A DNA stretch of 64,000 nt, from NCBI GenBank assembly GCA_944350015.1, contig CALVNW010000001.1:36761-100760 (forward strand), in the 5' to 3' direction. Below, one piece after another: positions 5,762 to 52,119 of this stretch (the stretch's first letter is position 1; every line of letters begins with the position of its first letter). The translations under genes and the position numbers were made by a program. Under the pieces are notes generated by a model. That model made no database searches. It had not been told where the DNA came from and saw nothing but the letters and a program-made list of their open reading frames with translations. This DNA is from an uncultured Clostridia bacterium (lineage in GTDB: Bacteria; Bacillota; Clostridia; Christensenellales; UBA1242).

Positions 5762-5774
5762 TAATTATTTACAT

Positions 5775-8106: not shown

Positions 8107-8123
8107 TTAACAGGGAGGTAAAT

Positions 8124-9213: not shown

Positions 9214-9220
9214 AAGTGTT

Positions 9221-9481: not shown

Positions 9482-9486
9482 AAATT

Positions 9487-9514
9487 GGAAGCCAGGTGTC
9501 AAGTATTAGGAGGT
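9487..9514 (+). repeat. 28-bp leader repeat, copy 2
   Basis: See copy 1. It places the start of the next gene at ATG 9521 rather than at 9485. Confidence 0.85.
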
Positions 9515-9520
9515 GAAAAA

Positions 9521-9925
9521 ATGCTTTTAATAGGCAAAGAAGAGTTTATGAAAGAACTCGGAACGTCACAAGAAGAACAAGATGACTTAGTGCACTTAAC
9601 ATTTGAGACTTTTAAAAACATTAGAGTAGGAGATGTAGTTTATTTTGTTAATGACTGGAATTATTTTATAAAAGTGCCTTTCGTTGTAGATTATGCAAAA
9701 TGGTTTCCTTTAGAAGGTGAATACACAAAAAAAGGTAAACAGATTTACTACAAGCAAATATCGTTTGTTAGAGACTTTCATAAAAGATATGCAGATAGTG
9801 CTGGTCATACTTACAATAATTTATATGTCAAAAAGTCGATGTTTAATGAGTTATTAGAAAGAGGTGAAAATGGGATATTGGACAGCAGTGCCAAGCGCTA
9901 TATTAAGAACAAAAAGGTTAACTAA
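9521..9925 (+). CDS. Hypothetical protein (134 aa)
   Basis: ATG at 9521, 6 nt after the repeat-borne aggaggt. No motif recognised. Confidence 0.6.
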   Translation: MLLIGKEEFMKELGTSQEEQDDLVHLTFETFKNIRVGDVVYFVNDWNYFIKVPFVVDYAKWFPLEGEYTKKGKQIYYKQISFVRDFHKRYADSAGHTYNNLYVKKSMFNELLERGENGILDSSAKRYIKNKKVN

Positions 9926-24318: not shown

Positions 24319-24388
24319 CTTTCTATACGAGCAAAAATAGTCGCGTGTAAAGATTATCTTTAGTCAAAAGATGATGCGAGGAGGTTTT

Positions 24389-36300: not shown

Positions 36301-39300
36301 GGCGGGCGACAATGATAACAACTCAAGAGTTGCTATCGGCAGTTCAAACGCATCAATAAATTATATTGGTGCAACCTTCTTAAGTGCCGAAACGATTAAC
36401 TTTGGCGGAATTGTCGGCAATGTTGCTTTTGACAGTCCTAATGATATTGTAACTTTAACAAACACAGCTTATGGCGGTGCTCTTAAGGTGTTTGGCGAAA
36501 AGAGTAATGGCGGAGAAGTTGTGTTTGGTGGTTCGATAGGAAATGCTAGCGGAACTGCCAATGTGACGACTGGATATAACTTAAATCTTGTAAACAACTA
36601 TAACTATGGTGATGTGTTTGTAGAATATGACACGAACGCAAGTCTTAAAGAGCTTGGTTCTTACACCTTTGGTGGTTTGACAGGTATGATAGAAAGCTCT
36701 TATAGATTGTCTGCAAACAATAACTATTCACTTGTTTCAAGTCATAATACAAGATATGAAGAAGGAATGAATTCAATAGCAGGCGGTGATGTCAAGACCA
36801 TAACAAATAATGCTCTTTTTGGTAGTGGCGTAACGCCAGAGAATTCAAGCCTTTTAGACAACTACTATACTTATGCAGTTTCATTATGTCACGATGAACT
36901 TGGTACAGATATTGGTTATACCGTAAATTATCCAAGCGATGGTGCGGGATATAATGGTTCAACAACAAGCAAGAGTAGCCTTGGTGGCGGAACAGCATTA
37001 AATATGATATCCGCTTTCAATAGTAGTACTATACAAATATATGTAGGAGAAGGCTTGACAGAGGGACATAAGTTAAACCCAATTGTGATTAACAGCACAG
37101 AGACTGTTTTGGATGCAACTTACAAGCTTAATGGTATGACTTACTTCTACTTTGATGCAAACGCCACTCTTTCTACTAATCTAACTGCGCAGGTGCCAAA
37201 GGCATACAATGATAAGGGCGAAGTTATAAGCACGTCAACTGTTTCAGAGCTTGAAAACATAGCAATTATAGGCAATTCGCGCGAGATTAGTTACTATCTC
37301 GACAAAACTGTCGACAACCCACGTGCTATGATAGAAACTTTATCAGGGTTCTCATATGTATCTGGTCTTGTTGTAAATTCAGATGTTAATATTGATAGTA
37401 TAGAGGGTGACACCTCAAATTTTGCGGGACTTGCAAACTCAATGTATGACAATGCCATGGTTTATGCCGTACAAATTAAGGGTACAATAAATGTAGGCGA
37501 CTCAAGCGCACTTAATGTTGGCGGAATTGTTGCCAATATGTACTCAGGAAAGATACTCGATAGTTCTACAGCAGTTGATATAACCTATCGCGGTGGTAGA
37601 AGCGGTAATGTTTATGGTATAGCAGGCGTTCAGAATAATGGTAGCGTACAGAATAAACTTATCATAAATAGCTATTCAACAGGAAGTATAGATTCATATA
37701 TCTCTGCTAACATCTATGCTATTACAGATATAATAAGTTACACCAAACTTATTAACACATATACCATAGCAAAACTCAACCAAAATGACTATACAATATC
37801 AGGCAACCCAACAGGAGTGGTATCGATTTTTGGTCTTGGGGGGAATAGTGGAATCCCAGCCTCTGCAGTTATTAGCAATTCATACTATGACTATAACAGT
37901 GTCAATTATGATGTTACTGAAGAGGAACTTGTAGGTAATAGCAATTACGATTTGCGACGTCTAACAGATACTTTTGTTGGCGTTGATGGCTCAGCTCCAG
38001 AAATATTTGACTCTATGGACTATGATAAGGGTACGCTTGAGTTCAACTACGGCTATCCTACACATAAATATGGCTTTATGAAACTCTCGTCATTTGCAAC
38101 TATTGCAAATGAGGATACAAACGAAGGCACTACGTACGATGATTATGTGATTGAAAGAGAGTATCAACGCTTGCCAAATAACACCTCATTTGCAAGTTAT
38201 GAGAATAAAGATAATCTATATTTCTTGATTACAAGCGCAGGATATCTAGCACGAATAAGTGAACTAAATATAAAATATCAAACTATAGGAAGTGCTGGCG
38301 ATGACGGTACTGACGATGACGGTACTGGTGATGACGGTACTGGAGAGAGCGGAAGCACTGGTAGTGCCTATGACATAAGGCGCTTTGTACTTATGTATGA
38401 TATCGACATAGAGCAAACTCAATATAAGGAAGGTCAATGGATTAGCATTGCCTTTGGTACAAAAACAGTTACAAACGGAAATGATAACGTGACCGTTCAA
38501 GATGCTCTTATCGACTTTGACGGACAAGAACATACAATCAAGGGACTTAAAACCTCACTATTTGATTCAATTCAAGGGGTTGATGCAAATAATCGAACAA
38601 ATATTATGAACCTACGCTTGACAGAACTTAAATTAAAAGGCGGTGGCGCTCTTGCTCAGAAGATTGGAAATACAAATGTTTCAAATATGACTATATCTGG
38701 CTTTGTAGATACTAAAGAAAGTACTATGGAAGTTCTTCTTCTACATGCTTTCTTAGGCGGTCTAACTAATTGGGCGTATACTTCTACAATATCTACTATT
38801 ACAAACTTAATAAAGATAGATGTAGAAAACAGTGTTGATGATACTGCTGACGCTGTTGCAGTTGGAGGAATAGTTGGTCTTGTAGCGGACACCAAATTTA
38901 ATTACTGTTCAAACTATGGGCCAATCAATGTCGCAATAAACGAAGATAAGAAGGTTTATCGATACTGTGTTGGGGGATTGGCTGGAGCGACTTTTAGTGG
39001 AACTGAAATTAATTACAGTTATAACGCAACTTCAGTAATGGCAGGCTATGCAACCTCAACTAGCCTTTCAACAGTAGTAGGAGAGTATTATGTTGGCGGA
39101 CTTGTTGGGTATAGTGATGGTATTGATATCACAGGCAGTTACAACTCTGGAACCATCAAGTCAGGCAACAAATCTAATGGAGCGACAAGTGGCACTAGCA
39201 CAAAGGGCGTTTCGTATGGTGGTGGAATAATAGCCTATGCATCAAGTGCTAACATAACCGAGTGTTACAACGAAGGCACTGTCGAATCCCTCGGCACCAG

Positions 39301-42300
39301 TCCAGAGACTAAATTTGTTTGGAAATATGAGTATCGGCAGGATATTATTCTTAAGCGAAAACTTAAGCTTGTATTATATCAAACAAGCCAAAGGAATGTT
39401 TGGGCTTATGCAATGGGATATTTAAAGGAAGGTACGATAAATAATTGTTCGGCTAACAACCCAAATCAAGAGACCATTTATATGAATGGAACAATGCTTG
39501 GGTTAAAAAATGGCAATCCGATAGAACTGCAGTCTTGGGAATGGGAAGATATCTCAGCGAAGATTGATATTACAACTATAAACAATAAAATTTATACAGG
39601 TGGTGCTACTTGGTCAGATTGGCAAGGTTGGTTGATATTTAAATCTTTATATCAGAATCTCTACGCCATTAAAATAAATATTAACACTTACATAGATATC
39701 CCAGAGGTTCAAGATACTGCAAATGGTGATGATGCTAATATCTATGTAAATGCTTATAACAGTTTTGGTTTGCCAAGCAGTTTTGTTGTGCCTATTCAAA
39801 TATCAACGAATATAAAATTTTCAGATCATGAAGCTAAAAGTTATGATGGTATAATTGAAGGTGGGTTGCAAAACGGTAAGCCACCAGATGTCCCTTCATC
39901 AGGTAGTTCTGAGTGGAAATATAAAGCAGAACATAGGGTATCAAATAAAGAATATTCTGCATTTGATTATTCAACTTCATATGATAATTATATCTCAGCC
40001 TATAGTGATAGTTATATTGGAATGGTTGGCGCAACCAGTGTTAGCGGAGGCGGATTGAATGGAGAAGAGATAAAATACAATACAAGAAGTGCCGAAAGTG
40101 CCGATATTACAAATTTAAGTACTACAATAGCAGGGCAGAGTTATTATCAAGCAAACGCCAATAATATTAATGCAATATTTAATGCAGGAACATATCAATA
40201 TGAAGTAGAGGCACCTTTGAATGGCATACCTTATGTTAATAATACTAAATATTATAGTATATCTAACTTAAGATGCTCAGGAGTTTCTAGTTCAGGCATA
40301 TCAGCAAGCGTAACAAAAGTTACAGAAGATAATGTGTATTTTACTGTCTTCAGCAATGAAAAATTGAGCGGGAATATAACTTATTCTATTAATTTTAATT
40401 ATAATACTCAACTTTCATTTAATTTAACAGATTTAAAATATTACTACATTGACAATTATTCGTTCGGAATATTTGTCAACGGAATTAATAGTATTAACGC
40501 AATTCCTGAGTATTCTATTATAGCGCCTAACGGGGAAAAATACAACAATGTAGCTATAGGTTATTGCGTCGGCGATTCAGAAGACTCATCACAAAATATT
40601 CCTGTGCTTAATATAAACGAACTCGGACAAGAAGAATGTGAAGAAAAGTATCTGTTCTTCGCAGTTGAAAATGGAATGCTAGTTTATATTCCTAATGCGG
40701 AACTTTATATAGATGATGAGCTTAGGTACAACGTAAACAAAGAAGAGTTTGAAAATGGCAATTTTGAGGACAACTTTGAAGAAAACTTAAATAAGATTGT
40801 CGAAGAACGTTTTGCAGGTCAAAGTTACGTATTTTCAACAATGTCGAGCGAAGAAAGAGAAAAAGAAATAGGGAAGTATTTTGGCAATGTTTACGGAGAA
40901 GCAAGTGGCAATATCATAATATCGGACAGCAAAGAGGGCACCGTTGATTTAGTTTATGGTATTGATGTAGGTGCTTGGTACAATTCTTCACCAGAAACTT
41001 CAGATAATGTTGTTGCTAGTTATGCTAGTTACATAAATGTAAATGTCTCAAATAAAGCTACGTCAGGGACATCTTATACCGTGCTGTTTAATGGAAAAGA
41101 AGTTGCACAGTACACAGGTAGTGTTTTTAGTTGGGATGGGAAACCGATAGGCGGTTATATAGACGGTTATAGCTATTCCATTAATGTGTCAAACAGTGGA
41201 ATTTCTCTAAAAATGAATGGTATAAACTTAGATTTGGACGGAACTAACAATTTACGCAAAAAAGTTGAAGGCTTGTTTACCGTTCAAGAAGGTTCGGCTT
41301 CAAATTACATCGAGATCAAATCGGATTATGATGAGGTAGTAGAAACCAAAACATTCACATTTAAATTTACTCTAAAAGACTTATCTTCAGACACCATAGT
41401 TTGCAATTTGTCTGACAAAGCATTATTGAGTTATGATAAAGATGGTGGAGGCTGGGGAATATCGAGTAATTTCAAGCAAGTTACAATAAGCGGGCACACC
41501 TTTGATGTAAGCTTAGATGGATATAAACTGACTTTTACTATAACAGATAGCTCAAACGGGAATTACACAAACACTTTAAGGAGTTATATGGGAGATCTTG
41601 AAGCTAGAACAAACGGCTCTAATGGTGTAAAGATAAATGATTCCTTTGCAAACATTGTAGGGGGAGAGGTATCATCAAGTTTTAGTGGTGTGAGCGGAAC
41701 ATTAACTATGAAATACTCGGTTGATAAGTGGTATGAGGTTGATTTAGAGCAGTACTCTTACCTTGAATCTAATAGGACCACTGGAGAGATTAACTTTAAA
41801 GGCGATGACTATGCAAGTTACGGACTCGGAGGTGGTATTACGTTAAATGGAGTTACTGTTTATGTAGGAAAAATTAACGATATTAAATTTGTTCAAAAAT
41901 ATCAAAAGAACATAACAGAGTATAAGATAGTTATTAATGATGGCATAGGAGAATTCGCAAGTATTGCATATGAGTTCAAAATAGGCGACTATATATTCTC
42001 TGAGGGTGTAACAAATGGAGGTTCTACTAGCGGTGCGTTTGAAGCTACAAATGATGATGGCGTCTCTGCAGACAGGATAGGCGAAGGAATAGTGAATTTT
42101 AAAGCTAGTATATGCCCAGCCTATAAGTTACAACCAGATGATACTAAGACAATTAACATTGTTCTTGAGAGAACAAATTCACCTACTACAGACCCCGAAT
42201 ACTTTATTGCTAGTGGCACACTAAATGATGATAATACCAGCATTCAAAGTAATCTTATAAAATACTATACTAAAAATTCAAACATACTCGTTTCATTGCA

Positions 42301-44224
42301 AGTATTTGATGATGGTAGCTTTACTATTTATGATAGCAATGGGAATGCTATATTAATGTATACTAGTAAAAAAATTACATCTGACGAAGGTTCAATAGAT
42401 TCAGGCTATTATGCTTTTTATGATAGCAACGGAGAGCTAAATGAAAATGGTTTAATAAATATAAATTCTAGTTCAAATCCATTAATCTATACATCAACAA
42501 GAGGGCAGTCAATAAGGTTAGCGCAGATGCTACCTTCTGCTAATGGGTATAAACCTTATATTACAGATACCGATATATTGGGCGTTACAAATAATGGTTA
42601 TATATATATAAGAGGTGATTACCCTCTAGTCGACGAATTAAATGGAATAACATCTACGATTACAGCTTATGATTATCAGTGGACAAGTAGCCAAAAATTA
42701 CCAGAGATGGAAGGTACTTCAAGTACTTTGGATATACTGTATTCACAGAAAGATAATTTTGATTTTAGTTTTACTGAAGATGGGGAAGTCGTTTATTTAG
42801 AAGAAGGTAAAAATTATAACTTAACTGAGAATAACGCAGGTTACGCAATTTTTGACTTGCTTTTAAATGATGATGATTCTAGTGTTGGGTATCTCAACGT
42901 TAAGATAACTGGTTCGGGTACGAAGTCTGGTAGCTCAGCTGTAAACGCCAATGTGACAGCCCTTCAAGCACAATCAATAATACTATTTTCTGATATTTCC
43001 TTTAACAACATAGGAGGAGGATTTGTAATAAGCAGTGGAATAGATATTATAGGTAATGACTATTATATCTCTTATTTCGGAACATCTTTGTTTAAGGAAT
43101 TTAGAGGTGGAGGGTCACTTATAAAAGATGTGAAACTTCTTGCGGAAAGCGGAGAAGATGCTCTAATATTCACGGGAGATAGCTATAATGTTGCACTTAA
43201 TAATATAGAGCTTTATGGCGCAAAGGTAGAGCATACTGGAACAGGCGGTGCAATAATCAATTATACTGCTGGAAGTTTTAATTATAGCGGAACAGCAAAC
43301 ATTATATCCTTCGCTAGTATTAATGGTAAGTTAAACAATATTGGAAGGAAAAATGTAGGAGCTGAAGATGACGATTTGTCCGATACTGTTAATGACTTAA
43401 CTCTCTTTAATTGCGCTTTATCTGTCAATATTACAAACTATGGTTTTATCTCGGCATCTAACGGAAGGGATGGAACTAATGGTCGCAATGCGGGCTCTAC
43501 TGATTACCAATTAGCTGGTGGCGAGGGAAGCGGTGGAGAAAACGGGTTTAACATTATACTTACCGAATCTAATAATGCCTCCACCTCATCAATAACAAAT
43601 AAAGGTATTATGAAAGCTGGAAACGGCGGAAATGGCGGTGCTGGCGGTAGCAGTGGTCGAGGAAAAGATGAGCCTTTTAAAACAGAAAACATCTCTTATG
43701 GTACTACCAGAAGAGAAACCTATAGTGGAGGTACTGTAGGTAAAGCTGGTGACGGAGGCAGTGCTGGTACTATTATGATAAACAGCGAAAGCTTATATAA
43801 AGGAGCGAACAACTTAAAATCTTATAATGGCATTTCAGGCCTTTCAGGGGCAAGGGGAAGATATGGTGTTGGTGGCATAAGAGTTGTAGATAATGAATAT
43901 GTATTTGTGAGAGCACTTTGTGCGAATCGCGCAAACGTTGCGGCGAATTTGCCGTTTAACGAGTATTATGCAGAAAAGGAAAGTTACAACAACCAATTCA
44001 AAAATATCTTGAATGGTGGTTCAGAAAAACCTTGGCGTTTTGATGGTGAAAATGATAAAGCATACAATCTAGCGGATTTATGTGACAAGATTTTAAATTT
44101 ATCGGCAGAAGGCTATGATGATTCAGAAACCAAATACCCAACTGAAGAAGATGGAGCTCGATGGGATGGCTCTAACTATGCTGCCTTATTAGAGGAGGCT
44201 AATCCCACCGAGGGACAAAATTAA
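24389..44224 (+). CDS. Giant surface lipoprotein (about 6,611 aa) with many GLUG-type beta-helix repeats
   Basis: One uninterrupted 19.8-kb ORF. ATG at 24389 follows gaggagg. The lipoprotein signal is MKKFFVGFLSLFCMFGAVLLTAC. The N-terminus is Ig-like and beta-rich. There are dozens of G(F/Y)(V/I)GG(L/I)VG..NG.I..S-type units (e.g. GFVGGLVGVNNGTIIASSV, GTVGGVAGQNNGRIESSRV, AGFVLNNSGSITNSRV, YIGGLVGYVGSGKIEVSYS), typical of the GLUG motif. Confidence 0.9.
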   Translation: MKKFFVGFLSLFCMFGAVLLTACGGNNVELSLSTEFVSIQLVEGSTSEQTVTVTVSGVDDTSIRADARGYEDKIDVRQESVANGRTIIYITGKEETTDGYAEVQVRTLQGNVTKVIYVDVYSQVSSMEQKEEETTKKNNYAIRGDSIELIENNLLTFYPSQNSRRTITWTLAEGTSGATIEGNILTIDSSYNSDLASITLIATTELGVSAEVELPVVDKIEQELALSWSYSRDTQGYELISSDNNTFTIVPNIASDLNYIGYVKLQFNQELDVRGYALLNGSQTSDLVVEADGEDNDGNKIFSIYSNKALDNSSVNLNRDFTVYFEVGYSEFDYSLSTLETNPIHVNVREKVNGIVISNEDADDIKGTTQVLYSEYSNSYGQEYLVQVTPTTVIGATSRYSISLRITNPNIPTGGLANGCPVEFWYQDVNNNNIWTQIPLEYDSAQGIYTTRSNNTVSVSRIFMKASSSLNTQNFEGIEITFRSEDNPEVTNTFYAQLVKSVSYEDFTFEDADFRVDSSASITDVNITKTFVLQGQTSVEGLYIVNNSDNVLISDPAYITSTSDSVTFSITLTLRRESYGITSLDSYQICHRNGLQSELFDIDIFLPLKDATVLYDVSDISDSVTDYKTNNYLYDSEGNVINGSLYGLSSIMIKNGSTTPVLYSFNKSGIYQAQANIDVSYYDFVESDTMDLATFKALISSQAGIMEIINGARANTEKSSDIAYFAPDNNSIITKGVGFTYAVVTFTGKGALEDADANGNVTIIKIILIESYVSPSRMNVTPLSDSQVNLYASDTVATRDEALTKKTITINFANSGITYKDIENFEFVSTVKDSSGNPIMTNKYETENSVSWENGRYSIDKITITDSFIRFDIVTNSNFGSFSFFDELEVHYQLLLDGEDGETEVLDVIWTTINITIRNAQRVTSLNWENNDDDGIYFEIGDRDPYYIVLSSSPTTARNNNVTYLVTDENGTVLDNDSFISVDNEVSSSMVGLSLSDAIVQGTSGYVYLLPEDAVYNQSIIYNYIDTDGTAKQGQISVRALGSIRDNNQTWFDYLTENAFFLSNTSLTGEAETVYFADILIKIKVTVADGTSFEYAYRIYDEAGFNGINPELYYTVMNSLNISSSRLQIPVFNGGLQGYDDSITVNLNGNNFAGEIGQTAEIRNITFSGDVTGQGFIANVNNGTINNVSLDVNQTYSSTVSYQGTGFVGGLVGVNNGTIIASSVLGATISASNGTVGGVAGQNNGRIESSRVEFYNLADKNDAEGTLQNSFVGGVVGGIVGQANDGSVIERTYAYNYNIDTFTTTNATVLLGTTVGAIVGQLVGESTIYYSFAVIDGISNYAGTFGQGPTLGSTSIDSDFYWSYYSNGEYISQFSNQNSANLIASGENFHSYVNNGYRHFRDLYQDEKVTDVTSNQIQTTKDGDLYKSLAVDSTKAILFIYQIEESVGDLSSSEQNDLNELNTINLSQIVGSQGSDNLIITSSDTSIIKIIGNSISMLKSGDVTLTISSKHDVSNQKNIAIKVMPAMSQMIISYTDNSGYTYNIEEGSVTHLQKTKSRDFTFGYEVTGVYLGSQANRYTLAQNNINLTLDITVSGEGNAVSYEKISNSIYKITANKDSVSSQLTFNPVVVTDDSQQAYQDAINSEFSKSFTVNPVDGVISFYYSGESIPLTPSTNGAVRVEVQTTAQGDRENLRPEISYNNDALIRTRIDKLSSGDVTIYRYTLASDYSQDPDNYILSATVTLVDESYNSSTGIYSFIFEVSFSVFTGYRMQIDRDMTFNVSFVSDSESDSLDTTGSLTLTLTKQNFTSVDMTNFKVERSVWELVNGSYTTTHTRGAQVGVVSPGSSSIMQITANPSFAHYDYMELSYSGSTVSSAVNFELLSSIDGKKFVRNTRADVEARANTIRFTPSDTSLEKANGIIYFRVAVNSTVNVDTILQFTASFYESEGNLITSAHYYLTISYLAEPTVTIDGLSTAYLAVGSSVEVVVQVQEDQVVDSLVLDGDTLQGITISSLSEPTIDPVTRIKSYTATLNATVNASVGAPNNSFTVLARVSRTLNGVQEQRTALASVILVDFKLDQSSIKIQDANNGQLQVWAGVSKQFDVEYGLLPETYNYDQNDETSVERVQELLQARADFSIKQYYVSTKTVDGFTSIQYAINYDIANNTPIPLSKRLFYVVDGSEIPVTDAYASTAGARFNFIDNDDGSQDAMIIGARLGESVQFKLETYIALGDGSEPTTYSTYFTVTVEAYSDPDIPLTISSASEFENLNPSGYSEITQNDYILANDIVLENHQAFNTSLIRSLDGNGYTIYIKSFATTTSSSTLNISLFNEVLESTTLKNVRVNIYNGGQLTLDLAQLANNVQINIAGLAITNSGTITNSEVVSFYTQQSAIGTVANVNVPATTRHSNPSGFNIKFIRGSGTTENQYVNPNSTWIPSVAGFVLNNSGSITNSRVGGDSITILGAERLATDAQGNSYNSGYTYASELELGTFYIIGQGDMAGFVLSNTGSIASSFVKQLDMENQSNTTSYDTSGFVNSNSGSVITSYVEGVKNPESYEDNPDYSKYAYEGSSLKSNLGIIAGFVNNNTGNIKDSYSNILISNSSIESRVYLASGFVYENSGTIETCYSASQIQNSRSNQMNFSGITADGEPLAYGNYINCYFFNKLYYGSEDNSDNTTESLYATGAVLIPNPELSTYFYGFAIANGTTDGIWSINEEDGIKLIEPNIRSYSHRYIQYIDEGSDYTGTTAQNDIGEYILPYATLQFTDSSREINTALGSANNPILIADAQDFIEVTGTSTSVNINKYFSDYSIWGTYRLVSDIDLSSISESISLPSVTKAFSGTLYGNGFTISNLSIASERSGVAYGLFASMEKRNASSSSPLISNLILEVDQVMAGDVSMVGSIAGYIKDSIIVSVEIIFNEDATVTGLNFVGGLTGLSFGDSTIKNIVVTNPNVVADRFNIDSNEEYLTASSLVTMRNNISNNLSISTSIGSTLMTQMQRYSYAGSVVGFADHFVSSLRGFNVAQASDYSINNIRVSGIVYVQGQVAGGAIGLTGYQTHVRDAGVDITASMTSNQSHIIATKYFAGGVIGQSFGGLSRIYSQYDSSTQDLIENNYTAIFNGNESAERGATDIFYLENNVYGYSQMYIGGLVGYVGSGKIEVSYSKLNVVSLSASFAGGIVGALDLTEVSTYQAESELLSGNDGVYTKYFINEVYASGDVRAKQDGDPSVMTAGGIIGVSYGLGNSITLLAVNAVNQILNYDYATDSYIEVYDGLNISYTIKTNLILGAVYKDKDSTEQIVLVDDISDDGHYENYFNFIRPSGTMGGSAPEAEGDLPSVAYYEYYGYNGNKTYLNIIGNITGQVGNEDNTLYNNDYVYAISAPSNYSSASVGHQSTQQAFLNSGVWVISNWVHPGDDLLPTIRYQRTSSYIYLDDYTESVEYVFQLMQSANSDYTIVVRGRTSPDIEDSYSDINLEDYRDVVDVDLMIRGFQGSLIGSNEYITTDGEGGRNHRVKIISSQSFIASTGAGFYLNNVVVEYVDNGGIKLTTNTQNTAGLFSMSALNEATIISLDMTVSSPITVTNSPQVSSNELIFGLLAPSIESSSMSNVDIKAEGFSSTDSLVTLDINKNNTNNNTEIITAGIIAGQAMQSSTFSILQLDGINIVTDSNYLTIDGNNKDYSAIYTGGYFGKIERTEEALEVRMNISSITRDSLTTDGNPQLNVVDVGNVTEAYVGGYVGYNNGLNYLGTFQDGNFQTNIDIVISSNSSSVFENLYTGLLFGAIGSSSALDNVNLYNSNFEGGLFLSDTVTIENVYAGGFAGEINSVMSIGNITSINYQVADIDILEDSAVDNLSKDSFDSSSYNAYTVNMDGNAYVGGIVGKINTRFTFTGGSSAFTKINENGEAIRLTGSGNLYVGSVIGYVNSTVANTNDLSVNIYNNIVSNASFVVVQDDNPATVGIGGIIGYISGGDTAGDNDNNSRVAIGSSNASINYIGATFLSAETINFGGIVGNVAFDSPNDIVTLTNTAYGGALKVFGEKSNGGEVVFGGSIGNASGTANVTTGYNLNLVNNYNYGDVFVEYDTNASLKELGSYTFGGLTGMIESSYRLSANNNYSLVSSHNTRYEEGMNSIAGGDVKTITNNALFGSGVTPENSSLLDNYYTYAVSLCHDELGTDIGYTVNYPSDGAGYNGSTTSKSSLGGGTALNMISAFNSSTIQIYVGEGLTEGHKLNPIVINSTETVLDATYKLNGMTYFYFDANATLSTNLTAQVPKAYNDKGEVISTSTVSELENIAIIGNSREISYYLDKTVDNPRAMIETLSGFSYVSGLVVNSDVNIDSIEGDTSNFAGLANSMYDNAMVYAVQIKGTINVGDSSALNVGGIVANMYSGKILDSSTAVDITYRGGRSGNVYGIAGVQNNGSVQNKLIINSYSTGSIDSYISANIYAITDIISYTKLINTYTIAKLNQNDYTISGNPTGVVSIFGLGGNSGIPASAVISNSYYDYNSVNYDVTEEELVGNSNYDLRRLTDTFVGVDGSAPEIFDSMDYDKGTLEFNYGYPTHKYGFMKLSSFATIANEDTNEGTTYDDYVIEREYQRLPNNTSFASYENKDNLYFLITSAGYLARISELNIKYQTIGSAGDDGTDDDGTGDDGTGESGSTGSAYDIRRFVLMYDIDIEQTQYKEGQWISIAFGTKTVTNGNDNVTVQDALIDFDGQEHTIKGLKTSLFDSIQGVDANNRTNIMNLRLTELKLKGGGALAQKIGNTNVSNMTISGFVDTKESTMEVLLLHAFLGGLTNWAYTSTISTITNLIKIDVENSVDDTADAVAVGGIVGLVADTKFNYCSNYGPINVAINEDKKVYRYCVGGLAGATFSGTEINYSYNATSVMAGYATSTSLSTVVGEYYVGGLVGYSDGIDITGSYNSGTIKSGNKSNGATSGTSTKGVSYGGGIIAYASSANITECYNEGTVESLGTSPETKFVWKYEYRQDIILKRKLKLVLYQTSQRNVWAYAMGYLKEGTINNCSANNPNQETIYMNGTMLGLKNGNPIELQSWEWEDISAKIDITTINNKIYTGGATWSDWQGWLIFKSLYQNLYAIKININTYIDIPEVQDTANGDDANIYVNAYNSFGLPSSFVVPIQISTNIKFSDHEAKSYDGIIEGGLQNGKPPDVPSSGSSEWKYKAEHRVSNKEYSAFDYSTSYDNYISAYSDSYIGMVGATSVSGGGLNGEEIKYNTRSAESADITNLSTTIAGQSYYQANANNINAIFNAGTYQYEVEAPLNGIPYVNNTKYYSISNLRCSGVSSSGISASVTKVTEDNVYFTVFSNEKLSGNITYSINFNYNTQLSFNLTDLKYYYIDNYSFGIFVNGINSINAIPEYSIIAPNGEKYNNVAIGYCVGDSEDSSQNIPVLNINELGQEECEEKYLFFAVENGMLVYIPNAELYIDDELRYNVNKEEFENGNFEDNFEENLNKIVEERFAGQSYVFSTMSSEEREKEIGKYFGNVYGEASGNIIISDSKEGTVDLVYGIDVGAWYNSSPETSDNVVASYASYINVNVSNKATSGTSYTVLFNGKEVAQYTGSVFSWDGKPIGGYIDGYSYSINVSNSGISLKMNGINLDLDGTNNLRKKVEGLFTVQEGSASNYIEIKSDYDEVVETKTFTFKFTLKDLSSDTIVCNLSDKALLSYDKDGGGWGISSNFKQVTISGHTFDVSLDGYKLTFTITDSSNGNYTNTLRSYMGDLEARTNGSNGVKINDSFANIVGGEVSSSFSGVSGTLTMKYSVDKWYEVDLEQYSYLESNRTTGEINFKGDDYASYGLGGGITLNGVTVYVGKINDIKFVQKYQKNITEYKIVINDGIGEFASIAYEFKIGDYIFSEGVTNGGSTSGAFEATNDDGVSADRIGEGIVNFKASICPAYKLQPDDTKTINIVLERTNSPTTDPEYFIASGTLNDDNTSIQSNLIKYYTKNSNILVSLQVFDDGSFTIYDSNGNAILMYTSKKITSDEGSIDSGYYAFYDSNGELNENGLININSSSNPLIYTSTRGQSIRLAQMLPSANGYKPYITDTDILGVTNNGYIYIRGDYPLVDELNGITSTITAYDYQWTSSQKLPEMEGTSSTLDILYSQKDNFDFSFTEDGEVVYLEEGKNYNLTENNAGYAIFDLLLNDDDSSVGYLNVKITGSGTKSGSSAVNANVTALQAQSIILFSDISFNNIGGGFVISSGIDIIGNDYYISYFGTSLFKEFRGGGSLIKDVKLLAESGEDALIFTGDSYNVALNNIELYGAKVEHTGTGGAIINYTAGSFNYSGTANIISFASINGKLNNIGRKNVGAEDDDLSDTVNDLTLFNCALSVNITNYGFISASNGRDGTNGRNAGSTDYQLAGGEGSGGENGFNIILTESNNASTSSITNKGIMKAGNGGNGGAGGSSGRGKDEPFKTENISYGTTRRETYSGGTVGKAGDGGSAGTIMINSESLYKGANNLKSYNGISGLSGARGRYGVGGIRVVDNEYVFVRALCANRANVAANLPFNEYYAEKESYNNQFKNILNGGSEKPWRFDGENDKAYNLADLCDKILNLSAEGYDDSETKYPTEEDGARWDGSNYAALLEEANPTEGQN

Positions 44225-44246
44225 TTTATAACAAAAGGAGAAAATT

Positions 44247-45008
44247 ATGAAAGATAGTGATAAAGATGAAAAGGGCAAGTGTATCCACGACGGACATAGA
44301 AAAAGGTTGACTGAAACAGTCAACCGTGTCGGTCTGGATGGTTTAAGTAACATTCAAGTCCTTGAGTATATCCTTTTCTTCATATTTCCGCGAGGGGATG
44401 TAAATCCTCTCGCCCACCGTCTCCTTGACCGCTTTGAGAATGTTCATACCGTGCTTGAAGCTTCTGTTGAAGATTTGATGGAAGTAAAAGGAATTGGTGA
44501 AATGGCAGGGCAAAAAATCCACTCGCTACTTGAAGTTTTCTACTATTACACAGCCGAAAAATTAAATTATCAACCACTCAAAACCCTTGGTGATTTTCTT
44601 GATTATGTTGAGCAACTTTTGCGTTACCGCGCCGAAGAGGAGCTCCACGTTTTTGGTGTCAATATTTCTGGCGAGGTTGAACAGGGTAGATGCCTTGCAA
44701 AGGGCAATAATACACTTGTTGGAGTTAATATGCGTGATATCGCATTGTACGTTTCAACCGCAAAAGTAAAAAAGGCGTATTTAGTGCATAATCATCCAGG
44801 AGGCTCAAGTACACCATCTGAACAAGACAAGATGTCATATGACAGAATGAAAGGCATTTTCACTTTCACAGGGTGCAGACTCGCCGACTCTTTTGTTATA
44901 GGTAAAGATGGTATTTATAGTATGGAGCGCAAATCTATCATTCGCGTATTTAGTGAAGGTTTAGAATATTTGCAATCATTACTCCTAGAAGACTCGCAAG
45001 AAGGGTAA
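44247..45008 (+). CDS. radC: RadC-like JAB-domain protein
   Basis: SD aaaggag, 23 nt after the giant ORF stop. The HhH region is DLMEVKGIGEMAGQKI and the JAMM motif is LVHNHPGGSSTPSEQD. Confidence 0.88.
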   Translation: MKDSDKDEKGKCIHDGHRKRLTETVNRVGLDGLSNIQVLEYILFFIFPRGDVNPLAHRLLDRFENVHTVLEASVEDLMEVKGIGEMAGQKIHSLLEVFYYYTAEKLNYQPLKTLGDFLDYVEQLLRYRAEEELHVFGVNISGEVEQGRCLAKGNNTLVGVNMRDIALYVSTAKVKKAYLVHNHPGGSSTPSEQDKMSYDRMKGIFTFTGCRLADSFVIGKDGIYSMERKSIIRVFSEGLEYLQSLLLEDSQEG

Positions 45009-45321
45009 CAAAAAAGTTGACAACAATAAAAATCCAAAGACGAGAAGGTTTTTCTTCTCGTTTTTTGTTGTCATCTTGCTCAAGTAATTCATTACCAAAA
45101 GGAAGCACGCAAAGGCAGTATACGCCATCATCGTCATATTTTATAGAGATATACTCTTGCCTTTCAAGATAAATCAGTATATTTTCAAGCCCTTCAACAT
45201 CAATCTTGTATTTACTAGGCATTGCAGAAATTATGTCCTTTGACTCTATGATATTATAGGAGCCATAAGGGCATTCTTTTATCAAAATTTTCAAGACAAG
45301 TTTTGACTTTATGTCAAGCAT
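44950..45321 (-). CDS. Membrane-tethered winged-helix-like protein, paralog A (123 aa)
   Basis: The start at ATG 45321 is chosen by alignment to paralog B (MLDIKSKLVLKILIKEC vs MPDSKEKLVLKYLCKVC). Shared segments are ..YISIKYDDDGVYCLCV.. vs ..YIDFVVSDSKNGYFYCVKL... The C-terminal TM helix is LWIFIVVNFFVTLLASLLGVMIANIL. Its 3' end overlaps radC by 59 nt. Confidence 0.6.
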   Translation of the reverse strand: MLDIKSKLVLKILIKECPYGSYNIIESKDIISAMPSKYKIDVEGLENILIYLERQEYISIKYDDDGVYCLCVLPFGNELLEQDDNKKREEKPSRLWIFIVVNFFVTLLASLLGVMIANILNLH

Positions 45322-45558
45322 ATAGATAGTTTTTGCAATAAGCAAATATTTATGCCTTTTAATCATCCACATTGTCAGTTTTTGCGGAGAGATACAGGGT
45401 AGTAGCACCAAACTTAGGTCGGACCATTGTCGTTTATTGTATCTATATTTTTACTATTATTTGGTCCGCCCAAGCATTAAAATATCCCTCTTTTTTGGGA
45501 CACAGATAGCATCCCCGCATTTTTTGTGATAGAAATTAAACGAAGTATGTCAATTTGC

Positions 45559-45586
45559 TTGACAAAAAATGCGGGGGGGGTAAAAT
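45559..45586 (+). promoter_or_regulatory. Promoter with a G8 homopolymer in the spacer
   Basis: TTGACA (45559-45564), a 16-nt spacer aaaaatgcgggggggg (G8 at 45573-45580), then TAAAAT (45581-45586), 52 nt upstream of ATG 45638. Confidence 0.6.
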
Positions 45587-45621
45587 AGGGTATCCAAAAT
45601 AAATTTTGGATACCCTATTTT
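45582..45621. repeat. 40-bp perfect palindrome overlapping the -10 box
   Basis: aaaatagggtatccaaaat (45582-45600), aa, then attttggataccctatttt (45603-45621). The arms are 19-bp perfect inverted repeats. Confidence 0.9.
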
Positions 45622-45637
45622 TGTAAAGGAGGTATTT

Positions 45638-46153
45638 ATGAAAAGTTTAAAGTTTAAATTGTTTTCTAGCCTATCAATGTTTGTGATAGCACTATCAATG
45701 CTTATAATCGGTGTATGGGCAGTTGGCGAGACGCAGACGATTACGATGAACGGTAGTGTCAACTTTGAGATTGCAGATAAAAGCCTATATGTTCAAGATG
45801 TGCGTATGCAAGAGGATAACAACTCCGTGCCATACAGCCTAAAAGACCAAGGCAGGTTTATGCCAGGTTTTATCAACGGCAATTTTGATATGGATTTAGG
45901 TGATTTTACAAATAGTTACGGCTCTTTCGCATTGTATTTTGACATAATCAATACAATGGATGAAACAACAAGTGAAACGTTTGCCTACACCGTGGACCAG
46001 CCAACGGCGCCAAGCGGAACAACCGTCGATGTGTCCATTTTAGGAACAGACGGCGCAATCTTAGAGCAAATACCACAAGGCACAGTTAAGCCATCAGAGA
46101 TTTCCGATAGCACTCTCGTTACTGCAACAGTCACTATTATTAAAAAAAGATAG
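45638..46153 (+). CDS. Secreted beta-rich protein (171 aa) with a possible TasA/camelysin-like signal region
   Basis: SD aaaggagg. The signal/anchor is FSSLSMFVIALSMLIIGVWAVGETQTITMNGSVNFEI, which resembles SipW-type signal peptides (..GTWA.F..). The resemblance is weak. Confidence 0.65.
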   Translation: MKSLKFKLFSSLSMFVIALSMLIIGVWAVGETQTITMNGSVNFEIADKSLYVQDVRMQEDNNSVPYSLKDQGRFMPGFINGNFDMDLGDFTNSYGSFALYFDIINTMDETTSETFAYTVDQPTAPSGTTVDVSILGTDGAILEQIPQGTVKPSEISDSTLVTATVTIIKKR

Positions 46154-46239
46154 GCTTTATATGGTTATGGCAAAGTCTATTTTTTTGTTGTAATATTTTT
46201 GTCTATTTGAGAGAAAATATCTTAGGGAAATTGTATTTT

Positions 46240-46602
46240 ATGCCAGACAGTAAAGAAAAGTTAGTTTTAAAATATCTTTGCAAGGTATGTTCGGGAAAGA
46301 AAACCTACCTTATTTCTCCGCACGACATAGCAAAAGCGACTTGTGGTAAAATGGTGCTGTCTGTCAATGAAATAGACGAGATTATGACAAGCCTGTCACT
46401 ACAAAATTATATTGACTTTGTAGTTTCAGACAGTAAAAATGGCTATTTTTATTGTGTAAAATTAAAGAAAAAGGGACAGACATATTTGGCAGATGCAAAA
46501 CGTCAAAAAAAGGCTATGTTAATGCTGGTACTTCGAAGTATTTTCTTAGCTACAGTCAGCTTTGTATTTGGTCTTATTTTAAAGGCAATTTTTAAAAGCT
46601 AA
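46240..46602 (+). CDS. Membrane-tethered winged-helix-like protein, paralog B (120 aa)
   Basis: See paralog A. The C-terminal TM helix is MLMLVLRSIFLATVSFVFGLILKAIF. Start uncertain (ATG 46240 or TTG 46207). Confidence 0.6.
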   Translation: MPDSKEKLVLKYLCKVCSGKKTYLISPHDIAKATCGKMVLSVNEIDEIMTSLSLQNYIDFVVSDSKNGYFYCVKLKKKGQTYLADAKRQKKAMLMLVLRSIFLATVSFVFGLILKAIFKS

Positions 46603-46930
46603 GTTAAAAATCAATATTTTAAAATCAAATTAATTATTTGTTTAATTAATAAATAAAAAATAATATAAAAATTAGAAAAAATAGCTTCAATAATTAAACT
46701 ATTTTTTGCATTTAATTTTAAATAAATTATTATTTATTTTATTTAATTTTTAAATAAATTTTTAATTTTCATATTTTATTTTTAAATAAATCAACGGGAA
46801 TTAAATTTTTATTTTAAAATGATTTAAATATGTTGAATTTATTTAAAATATATTCAAATCAAAAATATATCATTAAAACATTTTTAATTTAGTTGTTTTT
46901 TGATATATAATTGTAAAGAAGGATGGTTCT

Positions 46931-48901
46931 ATGGAATTTAAGTTAGAGTCAAAATATAGCCCAGCAGGCGACCAGCCACAAGCAATTGATAAACTTGTGG
47001 AGGGTTTTCAAGATGGTTTAAAGGAACAGGTGCTTTTAGGTGTTACTGGCAGTGGCAAAACTTTTACTATGGCAAACCTTATACAAAAGATGAAAAAGCC
47101 TACACTTGTTATTGCGCACAACAAGACGCTTGCGGCACAGCTATGCAATGAGTTTAGAGAGTTTTTCCCGCACAACCGTGTTGAGTATTTTGTATCATAC
47201 TATGATTATTATCAGCCTGAAGCCTATATTGTTTCAACTGACACCTATATTGAAAAGGATATGTCCATAAATGACGAGATTGACAAGCTTCGCTCCTCTG
47301 CAACCTCGTCCATACTCGAGCGAGACGATGTAATCATAGTTGCATCGGTATCTTGCATCTATGGCTTAGGCAATCCAAACGAGTACTACAATCTTCATAT
47401 GACGCTACGGGAAGGCGACCTTGTCGACAGAGACGAAGTAATTTCGCTATTGATAGATATTCAGTATACGCGTAGTGACATTGATTTTAAACGTTCGACC
47501 TTTAGAGTCAAGGGTGACACTCTTGATATTTTCCCGTCCAGCCAATCAGAACTTGCAATTAAGATTAGATTTTTTGGTGATGAGATTGAAAAGATATATG
47601 ATTTTGAGCCAGTTTCAGGCAATCTTATAAACGAGCTTAAGCAGGTTTCAATTTACCCAGCAACGCATTATGCTGTTGGTCATAGCAGAATGGAGCAGGC
47701 GCTTGAACAGATTGAGAGAGATAGAGAGCTTGCAGTTGAAAATTTTACAAAGCAGGGCAAACTTATAGAGGCTGAAAGGATAGGTCAGCGCGTTTCGTAT
47801 GACATTGAAATGATGCGAGAGGTTGGCTATTGCAGTGGCATAGAAAATTATTCACGCTATTTTGATGGTAGGGCACCAGGCGAGCCACCATATACTCTTA
47901 TAGATTATTTTCCAAAAGACTTTTTAACTATCATTGATGAAAGTCATATGACCTTGCCACAGATTAGAGCAATGTACAATGGTGACAAGGCAAGGAAACA
48001 GTCGCTTGTAGAATACGGGTTTCGCCTTGAAGCGGCAAAAGACAATAGACCACTTACCTTCAACGAGTTTGAAAGTAAGATTGGGCAGGTGATGTATGTG
48101 TCGGCAACACCAGCGCAGTATGAGCTTTCGCGTGCAGGACAGGTTGTTGAACAGGTGATAAGGCCGACTGGTCTGCTTGACCCGCTTATTGAGGTTAAGC
48201 CAATTAAAAATCAGATTGAAGATTTGATGCTTGAGATAAAAAAGGTGATTTCACACAATGCAAGAGTGCTTGTAACCACTCTTACCAAAAAGATGGCAGA
48301 GAGCTTGACAAGTTTCTTGCAAGAGCACAACTTCAAAACCAAATATATGCACTCAGAGATTGACACGATGGAGCGTGTTGAGATAGTAAATGGCTTGCGT
48401 TCAGGCGAGTTTGATGTGCTTGTTGGAATAAACCTTTTAAGAGAGGGGCTTGATATGCCAGAGGTCGAGCTTGTTGCAATACTCGACGCTGACAAAGAGG
48501 GCTTTTTGCGTAGCGAGGGGGCTTTGATACAGACAATAGGCAGGGCGGCACGAAATGCAAATGGGCGAGTTGTGATGTATGCGGACACTATGACCGACTC
48601 AATGAAGAGAGCTATAGAGACTACAAACAAGCGTAGAGCTCTTCAAGAAAAATTTAATAAAGAGCATAATATAACGCCAAAAACTATTATAAAAGAGATT
48701 AAAAACACGCTAGAGATATCTAAGAAGGTTAGCGACGGCAAACTCAAGAAAGAGGAGATACCTGCTGAAATCGAGAAGTTGACGGCTATGATGAAGGTCG
48801 CCTCTGGTGCACTTGACTTTGAAAGGGCGATAGAGCTACGAAACCAAATACAAAAGCTCCGCAAACAGCTTGATAGTTTTAATAAGAAAAAAGGAAATTA
48901 A
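46931..48901 (+). CDS. uvrB: Excinuclease ABC subunit B
   Basis: 656 aa. It has Walker [11 protein letters not shown], helicase motifs ([12 protein letters not shown]) and the C-terminal UVR domain (AEIEKL...[15 protein letters not shown]). Confidence 0.95.
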
Positions 48902-51917: not shown

Positions 51918-52072
51918 AATTACCTGTAAATTTACGAAAAATATGACTTTTTTATGAAAAAATATCAAATTAATTGATTATTTTGATTAATTTGATTGTG
52001 AAAAGTAATATTGTTATATTTTATTAAACTTTTTCTTTACACCACCATAAATATCATAAAACCTATTTTAAC

Positions 52073-52109
52073 AAAAAAGATTGCCTTAAAAATAAAGCAA
52101 TCTTTTTTG
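52073..52109. terminator. Bidirectional terminator between uvrA and the convergent 635-aa gene
   Basis: Stem aagattgc / gcaatctt with an A-run on the left and T6 on the right. Confidence 0.65.
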
Positions 52110-52119
52110 TTTGAATATA

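Follow-up and report, generated by a model that had tools for sequence, protein, structure and literature searches.

A multi-copy promoter cassette with a variable poly-G spacer is probably a slippage-type phase-variable promoter in uncultured gut Clostridia

Promoter switches that work by slippage are textbook knowledge for Neisseria, Haemophilus, Bordetella, Treponema and the mycoplasmas. In Mycoplasma hyorhinis, the vlp family of surface-lipoprotein genes has a conserved promoter region in which a poly(A) tract lies between the -35 and -10 elements. Promoter phase variation is also found at porA (poly-G spacer) and opc (poly-C) of Neisseria meningitidis and at fim (poly-C) of Bordetella pertussis. 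The promoters of Treponema pallidum tpr subfamily II and tprL carry poly-G tracts, and these promoters are active with about 8 G or fewer and weaker with longer tracts. Promoters can also be inverted, as in E. coli fimS, the Bacteroides PS loci and C. difficile cwpV and flgB, and plastid DNA undergoes minute hairpin-loop inversions. Published accounts cover simple-repeat phase variation (PMC5084427, PMC1891110), the T. pallidum tpr poly-G promoters (PMC7864442), the invertons of gut Clostridia (PMC11892184, PMC11602134) and template-switch mutations, a source of perfect stems and of inverted hairpin loops (PMC8794818). Our search of the literature on homopolymeric-tract and slipped-strand phase variation found no report from Clostridia. 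Here we describe a locus at which a promoter of the slippage type is the probable interpretation, in this case in gut commensal Clostridia.

The locus lies in a 64-kb stretch of DNA from an uncultured Clostridia bacterium, which is called the window below. Its genes, promoter elements and cassette are as follows.

44950-45372, minus strand: "paralog A", a divergent gene called on related contigs as 140 aa, whose product has a transmembrane helix at its C terminus
45471-45625, plus strand: promoter cassette, a conserved multi-copy module supported by nhmmer profile and word depth
45559-45564, plus strand: -35 hexamer TTGACA, with TTG from a 34-bp core and ACA from the right arm of an inverted repeat
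45565-45580, plus strand: spacer aaaaatgcGGGGGGGG, 16 nt
45573-45580, plus strand: G8 tract, the 3' half of the spacer, a hypermutable simple repeat
45581-45586, plus strand: -10 hexamer TAAAAT
45628-45632, plus strand: Shine-Dalgarno motif GGAGG at 5 nt from the ATG
45638-46153, plus strand: gene for a 171-aa protein of a small uncharacterized family, with an N-terminal signal anchor
46240-46602, plus strand: "paralog B", 120 aa, downstream

The promoter read at this locus in the preliminary description, a TTGACA and a TAAAAT separated by a 16-nt spacer that contains G8, is indeed present. In the form TTGACA-aaaaatgcG8-TAAAAT it matches the promoter consensus at 11 of 12 positions and is the top-scoring promoter-like site in 44800-46800, and an ATG with its ribosome-binding site (RBS) follows 52 nt downstream. 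By the usual distance from the -10 element, transcription is predicted to start at about 45592-45594. These features support the placement of the G tract within the spacer of a putative consensus sigma-A-type promoter for a signal-anchored protein. Judged from its sequence, this protein is secreted or surface-exposed, with a surface location as the presumed one. It matches no Pfam or NCBIfam family, and its AlphaFold model (pLDDT 75) has no PDB match at Foldseek E <=0.001; some members of its family carry C-terminal BspA-type LRR or DUF6273 extensions. Transcripts of homologues occur in chicken-gut metatranscriptomes, and some contigs from such metatranscriptomes include the -35 region, which read-through or DNA carry-over could explain.

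The G8 tract had been singled out as the longest G/C homopolymer of the window, and no other G/C run in the 64 kb exceeds 6; the next longest are three of G6 (at 10876, 37838 and 56994), and C runs of >=6 are absent from the window. A first-order Markov model gives about 0.16 expected G or C runs of >=8 per 64 kb, and a length of 8 was reached in 4 of 60 simulations. By itself, the tract is only mildly unusual, and the strength of the case lies in comparative data. Loci retrieved by protein similarity, 300 kb in total, contain 17 G/C runs of >=7, and all 17 lie in a TTGACA-N5-9-Gn context, a count that corresponds to fewer than 17 independent sites, as several of the loci are the same contigs fetched repeatedly.

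The promoter is part of a cassette of about 125-150 bp with the consensus AAGCATTAAAAT..GGGACACAGATAGC..CCGCATTTTTTGT-core-ACAAAAAATGC-Gn-TAAAAT-AGGG-palindrome. With an nhmmer profile of 10 copies, matches were obtained at 45471-45654 of the window, which has one copy, and at more than 20 other loci. In eight chicken-gut metagenome runs, the flanks have a Logan word depth of about 4-70, compared with 320-7,600 at 45538-45585, such that the cassette core is 60-150x deeper than its flanks. In the IMG/VR viral collection the single match was L046, which is a Negativicutes-like contig, and the cassette core had no match; the high depth of the core is therefore not explained by phage in IMG/VR. 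The -35/Gn/-10 architecture is common to the more than 20 cassettes, with spacers mostly of 16-17 nt, and wherever an open reading frame follows within the available sequence the promoter faces it at a distance of 51-330 nt. The downstream genes encode family proteins of 171-536 aa, a lipoprotein and others. Some cassettes (L050, L057 and L076) are separated by about 290 nt from downstream genes with a proximal promoter of their own, others (L059 and L064) are followed by no family gene, and decayed copies are represented by L007, with G5 and a 12-nt spacer, and L059, with a truncated -10. The same design, including an identical 18-mer, is found upstream of YadA-type adhesins in Negativicutes-like bacteria. 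Two properties go beyond the preliminary description: as read from these comparisons, the element is multi-copy, and an allele exists from which 125 bp with the promoter are deleted.

Other dispersed hairpin repeats accompany the cassettes in a locally mosaic structure. A riboswitch or known small RNA was considered and rejected, since Rfam gave nothing relevant for 44000-47500 at E up to 1 or for five related loci at E up to 0.1; the matches were a chance one to a snoRNA, a tRNA at another place and a plastid cis-regulatory element below threshold.

Comparison of the locus across assemblies revealed G6 (L048, at a coverage of 2.7x, and L060), G7 (L071), G8 (the window and L001-3) and G9 (L023) alleles, where lengths from low-coverage assemblies may be wrong; G6 comes from two independent assemblies and G8 from at least four samples. 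The G7 allele and the window align over 2,824 bp with 0 mismatches and a single 1-nt gap. Other cassettes, in other taxa as well, behave in the same way. L057 (G8) and L058 (G9), contigs recovered from two and three samples, respectively, differ over 14,531 bp by three mismatches and by the tract as the sole indel, while the tract is the sole difference between L031 (G13) and L046 (G8) in 6,109 bp with 0 mismatches. A further pair has G8 (L021) and G7 (L042), and L076 has G7. By these comparisons, otherwise identical contigs vary in tract length by far more than the background indel rate would give. Some cassettes contain interrupted tracts (G6AG, G5AG3, G8AG), as expected of stabilized variants. 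Within single samples, k=31 unitigs with G7 and G9 accompany those with G8, the source copy being ambiguous for a multi-copy cassette. Across cassette copies, G8 accounts for about 86-99% of the depth in the eight runs, as would fit either a single state favored by selection or slippage at a modest rate.

Collectively, these data bear out the earlier proposal that gain or loss of a G shifts the spacer, which spans 14-17 nt for the G6-G9 alleles of this locus, and G8 is not invariant across strains. The analogy drawn with Mycoplasma and Neisseria is also apt, because a conserved promoter cassette is reused before many genes. We therefore favor, as the likely reading, a portable, multi-copy promoter cassette of the sigma-A type in which poly-G slippage alters promoter strength. 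What counts against it is the predominance of G8, the metatranscriptome contigs that include the -35 region, the cassettes that stand before genes with another, proximal promoter or before no family gene, and the possible length errors of low-coverage assemblies. Its copies would be placed before genes for secreted and surface proteins of an uncultured chicken-gut Clostridia lineage, with the -35 and -10 elements separated by AAAAATGC and the poly-G tract. Slipped-strand mispairing would then change the spacer by 1 nt per G, to give 17 nt with G9, 16 nt with G8, 15 nt with G7 and 14 nt with G6. Tract length would be expected to alter the strength of the promoter of the 171-aa gene heritably and reversibly, and such switching may be frequent and reversible within a clone.

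Upstream of the tract lies an inverted repeat, which bears on a different reading of the switch.

45513-45527, unstranded: left arm of the inverted repeat, ccccgcattttttgt (equal to CCCCGCATTTTTTGT), the exact reverse complement of 45562-45576
45528-45561, unstranded: 34-bp core between the arms, homologous to the segment inverted in L052
45562-45576, unstranded: right arm of the inverted repeat, ACAAAAAATGCGGGG, overlapping -35, spacer and the first four G of the tract

The repeat is exact, as the preliminary description held, with 15-bp arms 34 nt apart. Pairing extends to 25-nt arms with 84% complementarity, and 60 simulations produced neither a 15-nt inverted repeat that was exact and lay within 60 nt nor a palindrome of >=17 nt. 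A role that the preliminary description did not give it is suggested by a paralogous cassette. In L052, the core is the exact reverse complement of that in L050 and L051, which have the forward orientation, between GCATTTTTTGT and ACAAAAAATGC, and the sequences are otherwise identical over 11.2 kb. It is this comparison that places the junction of core and arm inside the -35, and the inverted repeat accordingly bounds a core that carries the TTG of this element. A flip of the core would turn TTGACA into ATCACA.

On another reading, the core itself might be the main switch and flip at appreciable frequency, with the 13-15-bp arms serving as recombination sites or template-switch substrates and the G tract secondary. 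The flip would move the TTG off the rightward promoter, turning it OFF, and towards a leftward TTGACA-16-TATCTG. We consider this reading unlikely, although several observations fit it. The arms are kept at 10-15 nt in most cassettes. In the distant species represented by L009 they are CGACTTTTTGTC and GACAAAAAGTCG, with three to four compensatory changes, and the -35 straddles the core/arm junction in both this species and that of the window; L003, for its part, has an uncompensated T>C in the left arm. The inversion is unlikely to be an assembly artefact, as no assembler k-mer is as short as the 13-nt repeat and k-mers across the junction must derive from reads, although its site is at the end of a low-coverage contig. 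Gut Clostridia also have invertons with trans-acting tyrosine recombinases (PMC11892184).

Against the core as main switch, L052 is the sole inverted allele, in a paralogous cassette, and its inversion site lies 17-76 nt from the contig end at a coverage of 5.4x. At the window locus no inverted allele was present in about nine independent assemblies, and six Logan runs with flank depths of 300-1,400, searched with stretches of the window and of L044, contained no inverted-junction contigs or unitigs and no loose ends, a search that low inverted fractions could escape, as Logan contigs drop rare variants. No cassette has a recombinase gene within 10 kb, and the window contains a single one, for a phage-type integrase (6463-7611), 38 kb away; a trans-acting enzyme could be encoded elsewhere in the genome. 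The leftward -10, TATCTG, does not end in the invariant T. The core is also far shorter than described invertible promoters, and we know of none near as short as 34 bp. Finally, inversion of a loop can be a sporadic template-switch mutation (PMC8794818).

The -10 element is overlapped by a palindrome.

45582-45600 and 45603-45621, unstranded: perfect 19+19 palindrome with a 2-nt center, holding 5 of the 6 bases of the -10

The palindrome at 45582-45621 is perfect and overlaps the -10, as originally noted, but its interpretation as an operator fared less well, since the inner arms differ between cassettes. As RNA, it folds with -23.4 kcal/mol (z = -5.9) on the plus strand, where T5 follows, and with -23.9 kcal/mol on the minus strand, where TATTTTA follows. 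The inner 8-10 bp of each arm are completely different from cassette to cassette (for example GTATCC, GCTGTC, AGCTGTC, GTTAGC and GGTGTC), and pairing is perfect or near-perfect in most intact ones. For this reason, the palindrome is best read as a structural hairpin rather than a shared operator. The outer arm tracks the -10 hexamer, and the U tracts are weaker in L007, L057 and L029. A terminator consensus scan did not list the palindrome because the stem absorbs the T run. Most likely, the hairpin, which starts inside the -10, would act as an insulating, bidirectional terminator-like stem against read-through, and its inner part could fold into a stem at the 5' end of the mRNA made from the cassette.

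The operator interpretation formed part of a broader scheme in which a dimeric repressor, possibly paralogs A and B, would bind the 40-bp palindrome and the upstream repeat with its minus-strand TTGACA would mark a divergent promoter pair. The position over the -10 is classical for an operator, the outer half-sites (A/C)TAG(G/A)G...C(C/T)CTA(T/G) recur in most cassettes, and paralogs A and B bracket the hypervariable cassette site in all alleles. We nevertheless regard such a regulated switch as very unlikely. Inner arms that differ completely between cassettes, yet stay complementary within most intact ones, point to structure rather than to a shared protein-binding sequence, and the palindrome of L060 has two uncompensated changes. 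Typical operators are much shorter than a 38-bp perfect palindrome. Paralogs A and B match no DNA-binding family, with no Pfam match for paralog A. As to the divergent promoter, the minus-strand TTGACA exists (tgtcaa at 45548-45553), but no acceptable -10 lies at 16-18 nt from it (TATCAC/ATCACA), the promoter scan did not list it, and we rejected this promoter.

Inversion, slippage and hairpin can also be combined with the favored poly-G reading. The result would be a two-layer stochastic switch of a kind undescribed so far. One layer would be a 34-bp micro-inverton that moves only the TTG of the -35, with either a recombinase acting in trans or programmed template switching at the 13-15-bp arms as the cause of the flip; the other would be the poly-G tract, and a hairpin that covaries with the -10 would insulate the unit. 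This combination seems doubtful to us. If it were true, 34 bp would be by far the smallest invertible promoter segment, and dozens of surface-protein genes would each have several independent ON/OFF/level states.

Alleles without the promoter provide a further comparison.

45493-45617, unstranded: 125-bp segment absent from promoter-less alleles
45483-45498 and 45610-45623: imperfect direct repeats flanking the deletion, ATATCCCTCTTTTTTG and ATACCCTATTTTTG, respectively

The deletion allele is present in four assemblies (L004, L047, L063 and L072) and one Logan contig (X7). Its indel ends are imperfect direct repeats of 14-16 bp without terminal inverted repeats, and the left end of the cassette, AAGCATTAAAATA, is still present in the "empty" alleles. 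These features identify an internal deletion, and a MITE or insertion element as the origin of the 125-bp indel was rejected. In L063 and L072, which represent one lineage, the gene for the 171-aa protein is frameshifted, with an additional stop at codon 2 in L063, while none of the eight promoter-bearing contigs translated has a disrupted gene. Gene decay is confined to one promoter-less lineage, which lends indirect support to the presumed effect of tract length on transcription.

These alleles also bear on the view that the cassette is a neutral, REP- or MITE-like dispersed element with an incidental resemblance to a promoter, in which G tract, inversion and deletions would be plain instability and expression would be unaffected. 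The very high copy number, the company of other dispersed hairpin repeats in a mosaic structure and the gene-distant or decayed copies, such as L007 and L059, are in keeping with it. We find it quite improbable all the same. The -35 and -10 are near consensus with spacers clustered at 16-17 nt, and the cassettes are consistently oriented towards a downstream gene with an RBS. In addition, the retained left end indicates internal deletion rather than insertion with target duplication, and decay of the gene occurs only where the promoter is missing.

If the tract controls expression, as in the slippage reading that we favor, commensals would run a large contingency-locus system. Such systems are missed by metagenome annotation and collapsed by assemblies. 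The cassette is also a natural test bed for the effect of spacer length on a sigma-A promoter in Firmicutes, for whether very short segments bounded by inverted repeats can switch and for the effect of a hairpin that overlaps the -10.

Comparison with the known systems reveals both shared and distinct features. As in described invertons, inverted repeats flank a promoter-bearing segment, both orientations were seen in natural DNA, in the single case of a paralogous cassette (L050 versus L052), and surface-protein genes lie downstream. However, invertons span about 150-1000 bp, whereas the core here is 34 bp with just three bases of the -35, and no mixed orientation was seen within samples in the six Logan runs. 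An exactly inverted loop with short perfect arms on both sides, and perfect palindromes in which the two arms change together, recall the template-switch and plastid cases, but those footprints have no proposed regulatory role, whereas the inverted loop here carries part of a -35. The T. pallidum tpr genes likewise have a variable poly-G tract upstream of members of a paralogous surface-protein family. Their tract, in contrast, lies upstream of the start site, not clearly in a -35/-10 spacer, and has no associated inverted repeat or palindrome. With porA, opc and fim, the cassette shares a tract of 8-14 G or C that lies between the -35 and -10 or close to them, 1-nt changes that tune a spacer of about 16-18 nt, and surface-protein genes as targets. 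Those are single-copy promoters of Gram-negative pathogens, whereas here the cassette is multi-copy, the host is an uncultured gut commensal and the evidence is wholly comparative. The M. hyorhinis vlp system differs in that the tract here is poly-G in AT-rich Clostridia, also serves unrelated genes, including one for a lipoprotein, and is accompanied by an inverted repeat that bounds part of the -35 and by a palindrome over the -10, with switching deduced from sequence. As in vlp, a homopolymer occupies the promoter spacer, a conserved cassette stands before many genes for surface or secreted proteins and tract length varies in otherwise identical sequences.

The cassette lies in chromosomal DNA of an uncultured Clostridia bacterium that occurs in chicken-gut metagenomes, in the following setting (positions within the window).

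Upstream: 6617-aa ORF (24371-44224), then radC
44950-45372, minus strand: paralog A, small divergent gene with a C-terminal membrane helix
45513-45527 and 45562-45576: exact 15-nt inverted repeat, arms 34 nt apart
45548-45553: tgtcaa
45559-45564, plus strand: −35 hexamer TTGACA
Between TTGACA and TAAAAT: 16-nt spacer aaaaatgcGGGGGGGG, including G8 at 45573-45580
45581-45586: −10 hexamer TAAAAT
45582-45600 and 45603-45621: perfect palindrome, arms 19+19
Between paralogs A and B (45638-46153, plus strand): gene for the 171-aa signal-anchored protein
46240-46602, plus strand: paralog B, small gene paralogous to paralog A
Downstream: uvrB, uvrA

The promoter, G8, inverted repeat, tgtcaa and palindrome reported in the preliminary description are all present, whereas its divergent promoter pair is unsupported. 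The promoter matches consensus at 11/12 positions and tops all sites in 44800-46800. As had been claimed, G8 is the longest G/C homopolymer, and indeed the sole G/C run >6 within the window. By itself it is just mildly unusual, since a first-order Markov model predicts ~0.16 G/C runs ≥8 in 64 kb, and such a length was attained in 4 of 60 simulations. Not one of the 60 simulations produced a palindrome ≥17 nt or, within 60 nt, an exact inverted repeat of 15 nt.

Among 5.8 billion proteins the 171-aa protein has 25 matches, which make up a small, uncharacterised family with five paralogues in one MAG; the protein has no Pfam family, NCBIfam family or structural match. The single 6617-aa ORF carries a lipoprotein-like signal at its N terminus and numerous repeats, and probably encodes a giant surface protein. 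It is directly followed by radC (plus strand), whose 3′ end converges on that of paralog A with a 59-nt overlap (44950-45008). Farther away, a phage-type tyrosine integrase gene (6463-7611, minus strand), small genes and a wHTH/DnaD-like gene occupy a lower-GC stretch (6463-10628) that is probably an integrated mobile element; no link between this region and the cassette was found. Between the end of uvrA (51917) and a convergent gene (52120-54027), two exactly complementary 15-nt arms enclose a 12-nt loop (52070-52111), probably forming a bidirectional terminator.

Four tract lengths are found at the window locus when orthologous contigs from other samples are compared.

G6: L048 and L060 (two assemblers)
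G7: L071
G8: the window, L001-L003
G9: L023

The missing G in L071 is its sole difference from the window across 2,824 bp. Other cassettes, some of them in other taxa, behave likewise: L057 (G8) and L058 (G9) differ by 3 mismatches across 14,531 bp, with the tract as sole indel; L031 (G13) and L046 (G8) show 0 mismatches across 6,109 bp; L021 (G8) and L042 (G7) form a further pair; and a G7 tract is present in L076, of the L050/L057-type locus. Among loci retrieved by protein similarity, 300 kb in all, 17/17 G/C runs ≥7 sit in a TTGACA-N5-9-Gn context, representing fewer than 17 independent sites because several loci are the same contigs fetched repeatedly. Within single samples, G7 unitigs reach ~0.5-14% of core depth and G9 unitigs ≤1%, values summed over a multi-copy cassette and thus not assignable to one locus. 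These allele comparisons strengthen the proposal of G-tract phase variation. They indicate that the tract is hypermutable at the window locus, and we infer that it may switch reversibly at high frequency within a clone.

The 18-mer TTGACAAAAAATGCGGGG, followed by G7-G15 and a −10, is also present in unrelated gut bacteria with a GC content of 44-48% (L021/L042, L031/L046, L037, L026/L027/L041, L033), which share the spacer prefix AAAAATGC with the cassette. Behind it lie genes for SLH-domain ESPR/YadA trimeric autotransporter adhesins (Negativicutes-like) and for a surface protein of 796 aa. Paired contigs differ in tract length alone, or have it as their sole indel.

The window contains a single cassette copy. 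When Logan contigs from eight chicken-gut metagenomes were aligned to 45250-45950, word depth climbed about 60-150-fold, from ~4-70 in the flanks to 320-7,600 at 45538-45585, and the core was joined on both sides by many different sequences. Scanning metagenomes for TTGACAAAAAATGCGGGG and retrieving contigs via family proteins gave >20 copies of a conserved ~125-150 bp module with the consensus ..AAGCATTAAAAT..GGGACACAGATAGCRTNCCGCATTTTTTGTGATARAAATTAAACGAAGTAYGTCAATTTGC-TTGACAAAAAATGC-Gn-TAAAAT-AGGG..palindrome. Wherever the contig includes a downstream ORF, the module is directed at it from 51-330 nt away; these ORFs encode family proteins (171-536 aa), a 459-aa lipoprotein and others. Most spacers are 16-17 nt, and some tracts are interrupted (G6AG, G5AG3, G8AG) and look like stabilised versions. 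In L050 (9860-9990), L057 and L076 (150-200), cassettes lie ~290 nt upstream of 280-295-aa family genes, with a second consensus promoter that lacks a G tract (TTGACAAAGGGTAAATTAAAGGTTAAAAT) in between, so that a constitutive and a variable promoter may serve each of these genes.

Short hairpin units, dispersed or tandem, occur at 45396-45480, upstream in L006-L009, and in L059 (560-1000) and L078 (2150-2340). They have covarying stems and conserved loops CTTAG/CTTAC/CTGAC (e.g., GCAAACTTAGTTTGC, CCAACCTTAGGTTGG, CGAGCCTTACGCTCGG), and are followed by conserved CATTGTCGTTTAGTGTATCTG..CTTGGTCCG. Many family genes have such units upstream, and in Logan contigs the units come directly after GCATTTTTTG. 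They have no Rfam match; candidate identities are REP/BIME-like mini-elements and a structured RNA array.

Four assemblies (L004, L047, L063, L072) and the Logan contig X7 lack 45493-45617, with imperfect direct repeats ATATCCCTCTTTTTTG and ATACCCTATTTTTG at the breakpoints. Because these alleles retain the cassette's left end, the loss is an internal deletion and an empty insertion site is ruled out. In the promoter-less L063 and L072 the 171-aa gene carries the same frameshift, with an additional stop at codon 2 in L063, and the gene is intact in 8/8 promoter-bearing contigs translated; indirectly, this suggests that the deleted segment drives it. Between paralogs A and B (45373-46239), some strains (L059, L062, L064-L068) have a different gene or none, the contents across strains being the 171-aa gene, a gene >366 aa, or a cassette alone, its tract G7 and its −10 truncated. 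This variation in gene content marks the interval as a hypervariable cassette position.

The palindrome had been proposed as an operator. Its inner stems differ between cassettes, and intact ones remain perfect or near-perfect palindromes.

L029: AGGGCTGTCAAAA.ATA.TTTTGACAGCCCT
L054: AGAGCTGTCA.AAA.TGACAGCTCT
L059: GGGGTGTCAAAA.ATA.TTTTGACACCCC
Logan: AGGTTAGCAAAAAT.AA.ATTTTTGCTAACCT

The outer arm tracks the −10 (TAAAAT/ATTTT; TAGAAT/ATTCT in L007; TAAACT/AGTTTA in L029 and L054). L060 has two uncompensated changes, L022 an arm of only 6 bp, and L032 none. Varying stems with kept pairing, and an outer arm that follows the −10, argue against a shared operator; the pattern would fit either a selected hairpin or template-switching homogenisation. 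For transcription arriving from upstream, the complete stem (−23.4 kcal/mol) and the T5 behind it resemble a bidirectional intrinsic terminator, which would shield the gene from read-through. A transcript from the predicted start (~45592-45594) would retain only an 8-bp 5′ stem with no U tract directly behind (overall fold −10 kcal/mol), and the palindrome may act on the cassette's own transcript as this 5′-end stem.

The inverted repeat, present as claimed, gains a possible role in inversion from L052, which is identical to L050/L051 over 11.2 kb save the 34-bp core, an exact reverse complement bounded by GCATTTTTTGT and ACAAAAAATGC. The forward core ends in ..GCTTG, and its TTG|ACA junction forms the −35; the inverted junction, ..TTATC|ACA, places ATCACA there instead. 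Arms are 10-15 nt in most cassettes, and in a distant species (contig L009) the arms CGACTTTTTGTC/GACAAAAAGTCG carry 3-4 compensatory differences around a 30-nt core, with G9. Gut Clostridia are known to carry invertons (PMC11892184). We regard the inversion as genuine natural variation and doubt that it constitutes a second switch. Frequent programmed inversion of the core is improbable: the one inverted example lies 17-76 nt from the end of a contig covered at 5.4x; ~9 independent assemblies of the window locus include none; no inverted junctions occur in six runs with depths of 300-1,400; and no cassette has a recombinase gene nearby. We know of no inverton with a 34-bp core. Moreover, replication template switching can give loop inversion between short arms (PMC8794818).

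The interpretation given in the preliminary description is partly supported. The cassette has the sequence-level defining features of a simple-repeat phase-variable promoter and is probably a new member of that class. Its closest analogue is Mycoplasma hyorhinis vlp, in which the genes of a surface-protein family each have a copy of a conserved promoter cassette whose spacer contains a homopolymer; the promoters of Bordetella fim, of Neisseria porA and opc, and of Treponema tpr with its poly-G tracts are likewise close. For promoters of this class, both the lineage and the scale of the multi-copy cassette are new, neither having been described before.
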